Positions 4,649 to 9,097 of a stretch of 38,194 nucleotides of DNA are shown here, piece by piece (within the stretch, counting starts at the first letter, position 1; every line of letters begins with the position of its first letter). This DNA is from a virus (Duplodnaviria > Heunggongvirae > Uroviricota > Caudoviricetes). Position numbers and translations under genes: made by a program. The DNA lies in IMG/VR virus record IMGVR_UViG_2925914267_000004; one strand, given 5' to 3'. The notes beneath the pieces are model-generated. The model saw nothing but the letters and a program-made list of their open reading frames with translations. It did not search any database and was not told the origin of the DNA.

Positions 4649-4944
4649 GCGCCATCAACCACCAGGAATTACGCGAACTGGCGATTGACCTGCAACGAAT
4701 GGCAACGCCTCAAAAATTACTGGCGTTTCGCGCAATGCTCTCGCCGTCTGCTGTGCTGGCGCTGCTGGATGAGCTGGGGCACGCCAGAACCACATCTCTC
4801 GCCATTCGCCTGACGCTCCGTCATGAAATCGAGGATTTCTGCGCGACGTTGGAGGCGCCAGGCGAACCGAAAACGCCGGAAGCAATACAGCAAGAGCTGC
4901 TGCAACGCATTAACAAGGTTTTTGTTTTTTTTCTGAACCGCTAA
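4645..4944 (+). CDS. Hypothetical early protein
   Basis: 99-aa ORF with ATG overlapping the previous stop. Confidence 0.5.
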   Translation: MSAINHQELRELAIDLQRMATPQKLLAFRAMLSPSAVLALLDELGHARTTSLAIRLTLRHEIEDFCATLEAPGEPKTPEAIQQELLQRINKVFVFFLNR

Positions 4945-5266
4945 GAAACCAGAACATGCACACACAAAAAAACCGCTTGCCATGCCGCAATCAGTCAGGT
5001 TACATTTCCGCTGCACCTCACAAAACGGGTGTCGGGTTTCGCAGCCTGCTGACAACCAAAGCGCACAACCGCGCCAGCGGTTTTTTTGTGCGTACCGTAT
5101 CGCCACGTCTTTTTCGCACACGAATTATGGTGGGGCGTATGGGGCCGACTTCGGTCGGGCCGGGTTCTTTGGTTGCCGGTACTGCGAACCTCGTACGTCT
5201 CGCCACCCACAGTTTCGCAGCTCTGGATGGTGAGTTTTCAAAACTTACAACCAAAGAGGCCACACC

Positions 5267-5497
5267 ATGGCAAACCGCAAACAGCACCGCGCTATCGCGG
5301 AGCGTCGTCACATCCAGACTGAAATCAACCGCAGACTTTCCCGCGCATCACGCGTCGCTAAAATCATGCACATCAATATGCTGCATGAACGTAGCTGCGA
5401 ACTTTCAAACCTCTACTCATCCGCTGTTTTCAGCTATCTGGCGGATGATCTGCGCGAGCTTCAGCAGCTCATCCAGCAGCAAAACAAACTCCATTAA
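5267..5497 (+). CDS. Hypothetical small basic protein
   Basis: 76-aa ORF preceded by GAGG; follows an about 320-bp non-coding stretch. Confidence 0.45.
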   Translation: MANRKQHRAIAERRHIQTEINRRLSRASRVAKIMHINMLHERSCELSNLYSSAVFSYLADDLRELQQLIQQQNKLH

Positions 5498-5569
5498 TTC
5501 CTGTTCCGGGCCTTTCCTGCACCTTGCGGCGGGAGGCCTTCGCACATCTGTAACAAGAGGATTGCCGCA

Positions 5570-5935
5570 ATGATTCTCGCCAACGACTTTCTTGAATACC
5601 TGCTCAACACAGAACGTGATCTTGCCGCCCGCGTGCGTGATCGTTATGACATGTACCTGAAATCCCTGCCTGTACCGCGGCTCGCTGACGGAAAGATTGT
5701 TATTGATGGTCGCTACATGATTGACAGCCATGAGGGAAATTACAGGCTTTACCGCATTGAAGGTGGCACCCCGTCCGTTATTGGCATTTACCAGCGCCCA
5801 TCCTCTGCAATCGTCGATGTGATTGCCGACATCATCCGCATCACACATCGCCATGCCGACACAGAAGACACCGTGCTGGAAATTCAGCGGCTGGCTACCG
5901 TCTGCCGCGACACCCTGAATGGCATGACGAAGTAA
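5570..5935 (+). CDS. Hypothetical protein immediately upstream of replication gene A
   Basis: 121-aa ORF in the position of a P2 replication accessory gene; position only. Confidence 0.45.
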   Translation: MILANDFLEYLLNTERDLAARVRDRYDMYLKSLPVPRLADGKIVIDGRYMIDSHEGNYRLYRIEGGTPSVIGIYQRPSSAIVDVIADIIRITHRHADTEDTVLEIQRLATVCRDTLNGMTK

Positions 5936-5941
5936 ATCACT

Positions 5942-8557
5942 ATGACGGCAGAGTACATCAGGGACTGGCAACAACCACGCCACGCAGTGGGGCGTGAAGG
6001 AACGGGGATCCCCGCTCCTGAATCCGCGCTTTCCTCCTGGCTGGATGCCTACCGGGCAGAGAACGAGCGCCGCCAGGAAATGGCTGATGCGGCGTTCTCC
6101 GCCACGCCGCTGGACAACCTGATTAATAAAAGCCTGGACGCACAGGAAAAACAGGACAAAACCATCACACTGGCAGGAGACGCAAGAAAACAGGCACGCG
6201 GCGCGGTGGATGAAGCCATGGCCTCGCTGCGCCTGCTGCCGTCCTATCTGCGCGATCCGCTTATTCGCCACCTCTCCTTCCTGCGCAAAAAACAGGAAGC
6301 CGATCGCCGGAAAGGCAAAAAGAGCTGGCAGGCGGAACGCTATGCACGCGGAACCCTGCGCAAAATATTCGAACGTCTGGAGCGCACCGACAGCCGCTGG
6401 CTGACACCGGGTTATCGCGCCCTTGCCGGACGCGAACGCCTGGACGATTTGCTTTACCTGCCGCAGCTTAACAAGCACCAGATACAGACGCTGGCCACCA
6501 TGACGGCGGCAATGTTCAGCAGCACCTTTGAGACTCTCTGTGATGGTTTCGGTGCCAGAGATGGCGAGCTGACCATGGATGTAACGCTGAAGGCGTATCA
6601 GATGCTGGCCCGCATGGCGTTACACCTGCACGCCATGCCTCCACATTATGACGCACTGACAACAGACAAAGACCGGAGGAACGAACCGGACACGGAACTG
6701 CTGCCGGGCGCAATCCTTCGCCTGACCTGTGCGGACTGGTGGAAACGCAAACTGTGGCTGTTACGTTGTGAGTGGCGGGAAGAACAACTCCGCGCCGCCT
6801 GTCTGGTTTCCAGAAAAACATCACCCTATCTGAGCCAGGACGCGTTAAGCGAGTTTCGCGCACAGCGCGAGAAAACACGCGATTTCCTGAAAAGTTTCAT
6901 GCTGGAAAATGAAGACGGGTTCACGATTGATCTCGAGACGGTGTATTACGCGGGAGTAAGTAACCCGGTTCACCGTAAGGCAGAAATGATGGCCACCATG
7001 AAGGGACTGGAACTTCTGGCCGAAGCCCGTGGCGACAAAGCGGTGTTTCTGACTGTCACCTGCCCGTCAAAATACCACGCCACAACAGAGAACGGTCATC
7101 CGAATCCCAAATGGAACGGGGCCACCATGCGCGACTCCAGCGATTACCTGGTTAACACGTTTTTTGCGGCGGTCCGCAAAAAACTGAACCGCGACGGCCT
7201 GCGCTGGTATGGCATCCGCACGGTGGAGCCTCACCATGACGGCACCGTGCACTGGCATATGATGGTCTTTGCTCATCCGGAAGAAATCGACACCATTGTG
7301 TCCCACACCCGCGATATTGCCATTCAGGAAGACCGCCACGAACTGGGCAATGATATTACTCCGCGCTTTAAGGCGGAGTACGTCGACGGCTCAAAAGGCA
7401 CGCCAACCAGCTACATCGCCACCTACATCGGAAAGAACCTGGACAGCCACGCCGTGGATGGCATCGACCCGAAAACGGGCAAGCCACGCGTTGACCACGA
7501 AACCGGAAAATCAATGGCCGAGAGCGTGGAGCACGCCATCGGCTGGGCGCGCCTTCACCGGGTCCGCCAGTTCCAGTTCTTTGGCATCCCCTCCCGTCAG
7601 GTGTGGCGTGAACTGCGCCGCCTTGCCAGCCAGATGGCACGCAACCCGGAAGGCCCGCAACAGCTGAAGGATGACGCAATGGATGCGGTACTCGCTGCCG
7701 CTGATGCCGGGTGTTTTGCCACCTACATTGAAAAACAGGGTGGCGTGCTTGTTCCACGCAAAGACTACCTGATTCGCACCGCCTACGACCTCGCAGATGA
7801 GCTGAACGATTACGGCGAACAGAGCGTACAGATTTACGGGATCTGGTCGCCGCTCATCGGGGAGTCTTCCCGCGTGTGCACGCATCCGGATAACTGGAAG
7901 CTGGTAAGACGTAAACCGGAAGCGGAAGACAGCGCCCGCGAAAATGGTTTTGACCTTCAGGGCGGCCCTGCCGCCCCTTGGACTCGTGGCAATAACTGTC
8001 CCCGTGTACAGGAAACGGACAACAACGGGACAGAACAGCCGGAAGAACGGCCAGCACCGTGGCCGCAGCTTCCTGACGGCATTGAAGTGAATGAATGGAT
8101 GCGCTCACTGAAACGGCACGAACGCCGGGCGCTGATGCGTTCGCTGCGTGAAAAACCAGTAAATACCAGCAGCGGTGATACACCTGACCGGATGGCAGGG
8201 CATAAACAACCGCCAGACATACCAGTATCACCTGCCACTGAATGGAGAAAATCAGCCGGGGAACCGGGCATAAAACTGAGCGATGAACATATACAGCACC
8301 TGATGAAGACGGGAATGCTGCGTATTAATGGCCATGTACTGGAAGTCACTGACGGCAGACTGACACACCGTCGCGATCAGCGCACAGACAGGAAGGTGAG
8401 CCGCATCTGGGAACGCCTGAGCCGCAATCATGGCATCAGCGCAACTGAAATCAGGTACAACCCGCTCGCACACTACGTGGACATGCTCAGGAATATCGGC
8501 GTGGAGGCTTTACCCGCAGTCACAGAACACAGACATCAGGGAGATGAATCTCAGTGA
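5942..8557 (+). CDS. A: Rolling-circle replication initiator/endonuclease (P2 gpA-like)
   Basis: 871-aa ORF with the HUH-type motif VHWHMMVFAHPEE; the largest early gene, in the canonical A position. Confidence 0.9.
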   Translation: MTAEYIRDWQQPRHAVGREGTGIPAPESALSSWLDAYRAENERRQEMADAAFSATPLDNLINKSLDAQEKQDKTITLAGDARKQARGAVDEAMASLRLLPSYLRDPLIRHLSFLRKKQEADRRKGKKSWQAERYARGTLRKIFERLERTDSRWLTPGYRALAGRERLDDLLYLPQLNKHQIQTLATMTAAMFSSTFETLCDGFGARDGELTMDVTLKAYQMLARMALHLHAMPPHYDALTTDKDRRNEPDTELLPGAILRLTCADWWKRKLWLLRCEWREEQLRAACLVSRKTSPYLSQDALSEFRAQREKTRDFLKSFMLENEDGFTIDLETVYYAGVSNPVHRKAEMMATMKGLELLAEARGDKAVFLTVTCPSKYHATTENGHPNPKWNGATMRDSSDYLVNTFFAAVRKKLNRDGLRWYGIRTVEPHHDGTVHWHMMVFAHPEEIDTIVSHTRDIAIQEDRHELGNDITPRFKAEYVDGSKGTPTSYIATYIGKNLDSHAVDGIDPKTGKPRVDHETGKSMAESVEHAIGWARLHRVRQFQFFGIPSRQVWRELRRLASQMARNPEGPQQLKDDAMDAVLAAADAGCFATYIEKQGGVLVPRKDYLIRTAYDLADELNDYGEQSVQIYGIWSPLIGESSRVCTHPDNWKLVRRKPEAEDSARENGFDLQGGPAAPWTRGNNCPRVQETDNNGTEQPEERPAPWPQLPDGIEVNEWMRSLKRHERRALMRSLREKPVNTSSGDTPDRMAGHKQPPDIPVSPATEWRKSAGEPGIKLSDEHIQHLMKTGMLRINGHVLEVTDGRLTHRRDQRTDRKVSRIWERLSRNHGISATEIRYNPLAHYVDMLRNIGVEALPAVTEHRHQGDESQ

Positions 8558-9021
8558 TTAAATATTGTCGCCAGTGCGGCCGGGAGCTGCACTACAAGGA
8601 AAAATTTTATTTTTCAGATCACATCTGCTGCCGTTGCCGTGGACTGGCGTCGTTTGATGATGACGGTACTGAATCTGTCGGAAGGGAAAGAACACCTGTC
8701 GAACGCACCCTCTTCGAGCGTTACCCGGTATGGCAACTGATGATTGAGAAAGCCGAACGGCAGTGGAAAGCAACCCACCCGCAACCTCTGGCGGACGTCA
8801 TTACTGTAACCCGGTGCACAAAGGTCTCTGATGAACGCATCACCGAAATGCTGGCGCAGTATGACGACTTCAGGCCGGTTCAGATTGAAGAACGTGAGCT
8901 GATAGCCCTCCTTCAGGAAGTGCGCGAAGCACGACGCAGTGCCGCCTTACAGGCGGAAAAACAGACAGAAACGGGACTCACAAATCCCGTAAATGAGCAA
9001 AAAACGCGCCATAAAACATGA
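8554..9021 (+). CDS. Zinc-ribbon protein (CxxC-x16-CxxC), first gene of the A-Q cargo hotspot
   Basis: N-terminus CRQCGRELHYKEKFYFSDHICCRCRG. Starts at GTG overlapping the A stop, so the start is uncertain. Confidence 0.45.
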   Translation: MIKYCRQCGRELHYKEKFYFSDHICCRCRGLASFDDDGTESVGRERTPVERTLFERYPVWQLMIEKAERQWKATHPQPLADVITVTRCTKVSDERITEMLAQYDDFRPVQIEERELIALLQEVREARRSAALQAEKQTETGLTNPVNEQKTRHKT

Positions 9022-9063
9022 AGTGCGCACAAAACAGGCAAAAACGGGATTTCAGAATCCCGT
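8971..9063. promoter_or_regulatory. Two near-identical inverted repeats upstream of parM (candidate parC-like centromere/operator)
   Basis: ACGGGACTCACAAATCCCGT at 8971-8990 and ACGGGATTTCAGAATCCCGT at 9044-9063, both flanked by AAA; the second ends about 35 bp before the parM start. Confidence 0.4.
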
Positions 9064-9097
9064 AAACGATTAATTAATCAACATAAGGAAAAGCGAC

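Follow-up and report, generated by a model that had tools for sequence, protein, structure and literature searches.

The A protein of phage P2 nicks DNA at an origin within its own gene, becomes attached to the 5' end and serves rolling-circle replication. The comparators used here are P2 A (758 amino acids (aa); record OU784750), the A protein of phage 186 (694 aa as annotated) and that of phage P88 (940 aa). We analysed a gene of this type, gene A, which occupies positions 5942-8557 (+) of the virus record IMGVR_UViG_2925914267_000004, a stretch of 38,194 nucleotides (nt) referred to below as the window. Gene A very probably encodes the replication initiator of a prophage of Escherichia coli that resembles P88 (Xuanwuvirus, Peduoviridae), and the part of the protein beyond the predicted origin is a modular tail prone to exchange by recombination. 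A sequence-only reading of this DNA had singled out the protein as longer than P2 A, and had proposed that a long, charged and proline-containing C-terminal region might be a lineage-specific extension.

The open reading frame (ORF) is as that reading described it, with an ATG start and 871 codons followed by a stop. The product matches Pfam PF05840 (Phage_GPA) over aa 179-502, taking in profile positions 1-320 of 321; at 434.8 bits against a cut-off of 31.4 (E 2.2e-130), the match is far beyond chance. It also matches phrog_91, 'nicking at origin of replication', over aa 4-838 (E 2.3e-256). The identical 871-aa sequence is present in NCBI RefSeq as WP_126125929.1, 'replication endonuclease [Escherichia coli]', and the protein was therefore already known and annotated. 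The first 25 kb of the window are 95.4% identical at the DNA level to Escherichia phage P88 (Xuanwuvirus, Peduoviridae) across 77% of their length, and by this identity the position of gene A fits that of an early-operon gene in a P2-like (Peduoviridae) genome, placed before the gpA-gpQ variable locus; relatives have their portal and terminase genes after that locus. Gene A is an ordinary, annotated gene, and there is nothing novel in its C-terminal 'extension'.

The protein is longer than P2 A, as had been supposed, by 113 residues, and longer than 186 A; it is shorter than P88 A, its closest phage relative. Its HUH motif (H437-W-H439) was correctly placed in the middle, at 50% of the length. 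The description of the C-terminal region held in part: proline is enriched, but modestly (8.4% in aa 670-871 vs 4.5% in aa 179-669), and in charge the region hardly differs from the rest of the protein, with K, R, D and E making up 29.3% of residues vs 27.1% over the same two intervals. BLASTP aligned the protein with P2 A at 31% identity, colinear only over aa 77-708 (P2 aa 42-641), together with a short N-terminal WxxPRxAVGRE match (aa 9-19 vs 29-39 of P2 A), and with 186 A at 35% identity, colinear over aa 173-742 and taking in a basic helix past the origin. The last 130-160 residues align with neither, so the protein is not colinear over its full length with these two, and to that extent the earlier interpretation was partly right; P88-type A, however, matches it across aa 1-870. 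The 113 residues gained relative to P2 A are made up of -20 before the first shared N-terminal motif, +55 in an N-terminal insertion, +32 within the aligned block and +46 in the tail, and a split at the NNC motif encoded by the predicted origin (aa 683 here, 623 in P2 A) gives +60 before and +53 after. On these alignments, under half of the extra length (about 45%) is C-terminal. The region does not qualify as a lineage-specific extension: the C-terminal share of the 113 extra residues is just 46-53, and the tail, though not detectable in P2, is also found in P88-type and distant A proteins. We suggest that length differences among gpA proteins should not be taken as new domains, and that the post-origin region be regarded as a recombination-prone modular tail.

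In close relatives, the origin motif stands at aa 678-689. Their cores are 53-93% identical to that of the protein studied here, and the tails that follow the origin are 76, about 140, 181-189, 229-235 or 254 aa long. By blastn, the window is 96.8% identical to P88 over 5500-8178 and 96.2% identical from 8957 on, and within 8179-8956 only a 64-nt patch at 76.6% could be matched. Because identity breaks at 8178 and at 8957, aa 746-871 are an alternative allele of the tail, about 40-50% identical to that of P88 A. The mosaic block (8179-8956, +) holds this allele and most of a 155-aa ORF, and replaces 521 bp of P88. Copies of it were matched in E. coli TW10828 (97%), in Salmonella (88%) and in E. 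albertii (89%); among 5426 complete E. coli genomes it occurs in two, and its flanks in 1579. The gpA-gpQ locus has been described as a diversity hotspot in P2-like phages (PMC9122126), and the position of the block suggests that the gpA-side border of the hotspot lies within gene A, shortly past the origin and the basic helix.

Models from AlphaFold2 (AF2) outline an anatomy of the tail. A linker at aa 662-705 (7925-8056, +), encoded by the origin DNA, is predicted to be disordered, with a predicted local distance difference test score (pLDDT) below 50. The basic helix follows at aa 716-737 (8087-8152, +; NEWMRSLKRHERRALMRSLREK), modelled as helices 716-722 and 725-737; in the full-length model the element KRHERRALMRSLREK spans the same residues, which align with LSRRERRELTNRLRKK of 186 and, at an hhalign probability of 96%, with MSRKELRELNARLRQ of a Klebsiella phage. 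After a second disordered stretch (aa 737-757) comes a C-terminal module at aa 765-851 (8234-8494, +), which consists of two helices (765-773 and 781-790) and three beta strands (792-811) at a pLDDT of about 80, then further helices of lower confidence (814-830 and 841-851), and the end of the protein is disordered. AF2 run on the tail alone returned the same elements as the full-length model. Our best guess is that the tail makes an accessory protein-protein or DNA contact at initiation and has no part in catalysis.

The strict form of the earlier proposal is that a lineage-specific C-terminal domain, set on an A protein of P2 length, explains the extra residues. The comparison with P2 A lends this some credit, as beyond aa 708 the two tails gave no BLASTP match, an hhalign probability of 4% and no match to a hidden Markov model (HMM) of the module. 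Narrow distribution is also seen for the second half of the module, DRK..W..L..NHGI..IRxNP..Y..ML at aa 812-851: an exhaustive HMMER search with aa 690-871 against 1.8 billion cluster representatives returned 20 matches at E <= 1e-3, all of them A proteins or fragments, and this half is limited to those 20. However, the wider distribution of the tail makes the proposal doubtful, as does the C-terminal share of the extra length, which is under half. P2 A has a post-origin tail of its own (about 132 aa), as does 186 A (77 aa as annotated). The first half of the module, with the basic helix, is common to the Klebsiella phage A tail (hhalign probability 96%) and aligns in a 763-aa A protein of Salmonella and an 830-aa one of E. 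coli, and PSP3 gp36, a 186-type A, scores 13 bits against the module HMM where the best of 3000 shuffled sequences reached 9.4. P88-type A has the entire tail, and so do two distant full-length A proteins, 841 and 868 aa long, which share the module and end within 15 residues of it. A likeness seen by eye between P2 NGIRPQRWELEALARGATVNYDGKKFTY and GIKLSDEHIQHLMKTGMLRINGHVLEV was considered as a sign of homology with the P2 tail and was set aside as unproven, the BLASTP, hhalign and module HMM comparisons being those given above.

The 155-aa ORF (8554-9021, +) begins with a GTG that overlaps the stop of gene A by 4 nt (GTGA). Its N-terminus carries a CxxC...CCxC zinc-ribbon-like motif, aa 45-128 match phrog_21788 (unknown function), and searches of Pfam, NCBIfam, PADLOC and PDB gave no match. 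A tblastn search of sequenced phages gave none either, and the ORF is known only from prophages in bacterial genomes; it is 81-96% identical across E. coli, E. albertii and Salmonella. In all three relatives fetched (TW10828, Salmonella and E. albertii) it stands immediately after an A gene of 871/872 aa, again overlapping it by 4 nt. Its last 18-20 codons belong to the shared flank upstream of parM, where the 940-aa P88-type A is read in the same frame.

One explanation for this arrangement would be that the 871-aa ORF is a truncated or frameshifted 940-aa P88-type A, and the 155-aa ORF its displaced remainder, left by a broken gene or a sequencing error. The final 18-20 residues of the ORF are indeed the same as the end of the 940-aa protein and in the same frame, and the 871-aa A and the 155-aa ORF abut in different frames. 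However, a pair consisting of an 871/872-aa A and a 142-155-aa ORF, with the same GTGA overlap, persists in E. coli, E. albertii, Salmonella and Shigella, the proteins being 81-93% identical, and distant A proteins stop at the same place as the 871-aa form. Residues 1-134 of the ORF are unlike P88 A and match a separate family, phrog_21788, and the shared 3' end is explained by the common flank upstream of parM, which starts at 8957. We therefore regard a broken gene as highly improbable. The 940-aa form appears more likely to be the derived one, because distant A proteins end where the 871-aa form ends. We rejected the converse, in which P88-type A would owe its additional 70 aa to a remnant of the 155-aa ORF: the match is confined to the final 18 residues, which are encoded by the shared flank from 8957 on.

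Another possibility is that the tail allele (aa 746-871) and the zinc-ribbon ORF form a functional two-part replication accessory, recruiting or loading, for example, a host helicase or primase. The two co-occur strictly, their 4-nt overlap is conserved across four host species, and they lie within one exchanged block; the genes downstream of them differ, being ParM in E. coli and Salmonella and a ClpX-type zinc-finger gene in E. albertii. Against this, neither shows homology to a helicase loader, a primase or a known replication factor, and the co-occurrence is equally explicable as linkage in a young cassette, and we give the proposal little credence. It is similarly improbable, in our estimate, that the post-origin part of gene A and the ORF overlapping its stop form an exchangeable replication-accessory cassette in which the tail alleles (76-254 aa) set the host or phage partner or the strictness of action in cis. 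The tail alleles and the 155-aa ORF do offer a cheap place to seek determinants of initiator-host interaction in P88-type replication.

The origin after which the modular tail begins was predicted at 7960-7999 (+) from similarity to 186 and P2, and it encodes aa 674-686 (G-G-P-A-A-P-W-T-R-G-N-N-C). In P2, the ori sits within gene A (PMC3986222). The predicted origin consists of a hairpin found by inverted-repeat search, GGGCGGC-CCT-GCCGCCC at 7960-7976, and a conserved box, ACTCGTGGCAATAACTGT, at 7982-7999; its start coincides with that given in the sequence-only reading for the C-terminal region (about 7950). The interval aligns with the rep_origin annotated inside 186 gene A (L004:4577) and with the P2 sequence, and all three have a short hairpin of G and C, a spacer rich in pyrimidines that finishes with GG, and a box whose last letters are CAATAACTGT. 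The stem is retained though its sequence differs, being GCGGC-ATC-GCCGC in P2 and GGGCGC-loop-GCGCCC in 186 and the Klebsiella phage. In codon alignments over aa 673-689, the third positions are 100% identical to those of the Klebsiella phage A gene (gene mean 38%) and 90% identical to those of 186 (gene mean 32%), whereas amino-acid identity there is just 36-40%. A peak in third-position identity that exceeds the conservation of the protein indicates constraint at the DNA level, as expected for a cis-acting site. From the position of the 186 rep_origin annotation, the nick would be expected near G7981/A7982. As 7960-7999 is very likely the origin, it should be kept intact when gene A is engineered or recoded. 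A 12-nt inverted repeat (7996-8007/8022-8033; 83% complementary, with 14 nt between the arms) lies directly 3' of the origin box.

The Phage_GPA catalytic region (aa 179-502; 6476-7447, +) is defined by Pfam, motif alignment and AF2. Its HUH motif (7250-7258) aligns with the HWH of P2 A and 186 A, and a tyrosine pair, Y491-IAT-Y495 (7412-7426), aligns with Y450-IAK-Y454 of P2 A; the HUH motif and both tyrosines are invariant among 28 homologues. The role of the two P2 A tyrosines is the subject of Odegrip & Haggard-Ljungquist (2001), as far as the paper that cites it (PMC3986222) indicates. The full-length AF2 model, made with 28 sequences in the alignment, has a mean pLDDT of 71 and a predicted template modelling score of 0.62; its confident part is the core (aa 90-600), with pLDDT 85-95 across aa 90-500. 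When this model was compared with PDB by Foldseek, the HUH nuclease domains of adeno-associated virus (AAV) Rep and parvovirus NS1 ranked first at E 0.045 or worse, other top matches, likewise weak, were to Helitron transposase and ISHp608 TnpA, and there was none at E <= 0.001. Upstream of the catalytic region lies an N-terminal helical region (aa 1-178; 5942-6475, +), which had no match in Pfam and is supported by phrog_91 (E 3e-10) and by AF2 helices at aa 29-84 (pLDDT 55-65). From strong family membership we infer that nicking by the HUH motif and tyrosine at the intragenic origin is the mechanism.

We propose, by analogy with what is established for P2 A (in part PMC3986222), that the A protein would nick one strand at the intragenic origin near 7981/7982 and would then be covalently joined to the 5' end through one tyrosine, while the 3'-OH would be extended by host helicase and polymerase in rolling-circle mode. 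The 'extension' would be the non-catalytic part of the gene beyond the origin, made up of a disordered linker, a basic helix, a small alpha/beta module and further helices. Located where the gpA-gpQ variable locus begins on its gpA side, this part may be swapped as a cassette by recombination, here as 8179-8956 with the zinc-ribbon ORF, and such swapping would explain why tail length differs so widely among otherwise near-identical A proteins. Several points weigh against this account. Confidence in the modelled tail is only moderate, at a pLDDT of about 80 at best from shallow alignments, and searches of Pfam, NCBIfam, PADLOC and PDB, the last by sequence and by structure, gave no family or fold match for it. 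The origin and the nick are placed by similarity alone. In addition, the conserved 4-nt overlap suggests that the tail allele and the 155-aa ORF may function together, and the view that they merely mark a junction of modules leaves the overlap unexplained.

Several features of the neighbourhood should be recorded. Downstream of the 155-aa ORF is a complete gene for a ParM actin-like plasmid segregation protein (9098-10057, +; Pfam StbA_N, E 2e-82, and ParM_N), which in relatives is followed by a ParR-like partition gene. This placing of parM, between gpA and gpQ in an integrated prophage of P2 type, is shared with P88 and about 1580 complete E. coli genomes. Two 39-nt direct repeats (8958-8996 and 9031-9069; 79% identical, 73 nt apart) each contain a palindrome (ACGGGAyT...AATCCCGT), and their position immediately before parM makes them candidate centromere (ParR-binding) sites. 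The first copy falls within the terminal codons of the 155-aa ORF; in P88 it falls within those of the 940-aa A. A scan of 7800-9200 found no promoter, and a terminator scan of the same interval returned minus-strand terminator-like matches that are the palindromes upstream of parM. Upstream of gene A, Rfam matches above gathering scores were obtained for the isrK Hfq-binding RNA (62.6 bits; 5013-5087, +) and the C4 antisense RNA (81.6 bits; 5123-5210, +). These precede a 76-aa ORF (5267-5497), the equivalent of which, a gene of 231 nt, is called 'derepression protein' in relatives. A 205-aa ORF (4956-5573) that overlaps the isrK and C4 matches is probably not a real gene. A 353-aa antisense ORF (5417-6478, -), which overlaps the start of gene A and the genes upstream, is unsupported and probably arises from the GC-rich coding sequence of the opposite strand.

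Gene A matters little in itself: RefSeq already lists its product as a replication endonuclease, and prophages of this type are common in E. coli. Its place among described initiators can be stated system by system. To HUH initiators in general (phiX174 gpA, the nuclease domain of AAV Rep, IS200/IS605 TnpA) it is alike in the HUH metal-binding motif and catalytic tyrosine(s); the fold matches in PDB being non-significant, this likeness is thematic only, and the large helical N-terminal region and the post-origin tail are without counterpart in solved structures. P2 A is closer, with HUH and Y450/Y454 aligned within the colinear stretch at aa 77-708 (31% identity) and an origin at the equivalent intragenic position that has the same CAATAACTGT box and a hairpin just upstream. 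It differs in being without the N-terminal insertion of about 55 aa and in having its own tail of about 132 aa, not detectably similar to that of gene A.

The A proteins of Eganvirus, namely 186 A and PSP3 gp36 (708 aa), have a shorter N-terminus and a tail that finishes soon after the beta strands. That of 186 shares 35% identity over aa 173-742, including the basic helix, and PSP3 gp36 carries the first half of the module in frame. In 186 A (NC_001317; L004 about 4745-4900, record 28767-28898), the C-terminus as annotated uses a frame other than that of its relatives. Translation in the alternative frame gives TGITISRGEALHLMAGGKSCFNGRWVRGTSKGEIF; this sequence shows 81-100% conservation across 37 phage records, stands in frame in PSP3 gp36 and scores 18.5 bits with the module HMM. 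The pattern points to a frameshift in the 186 reference, or to an old error in its sequencing.

The closest described system is the P88 replication endonuclease (YP_009113059.1, 940 aa; Xuanwuvirus; relatives vB_EcoM-569R5 and PhiR44_2). The two proteins are about 97% identical over aa 1-745, the DNA is 96.8% identical from upstream of gene A to 8178, the origin sequence is identical and the tail has the same architecture. The neighbours also agree, with a 121-aa ORF upstream (5570-5935; a hypothetical protein in P88) and ParM/ParR downstream. P88 A differs in its divergent tail allele from aa 746 and in extending by about 70 aa into the repeats that precede parM, whereas in the window the A protein stops at residue 871 and the separate 155-aa ORF occupies that space.

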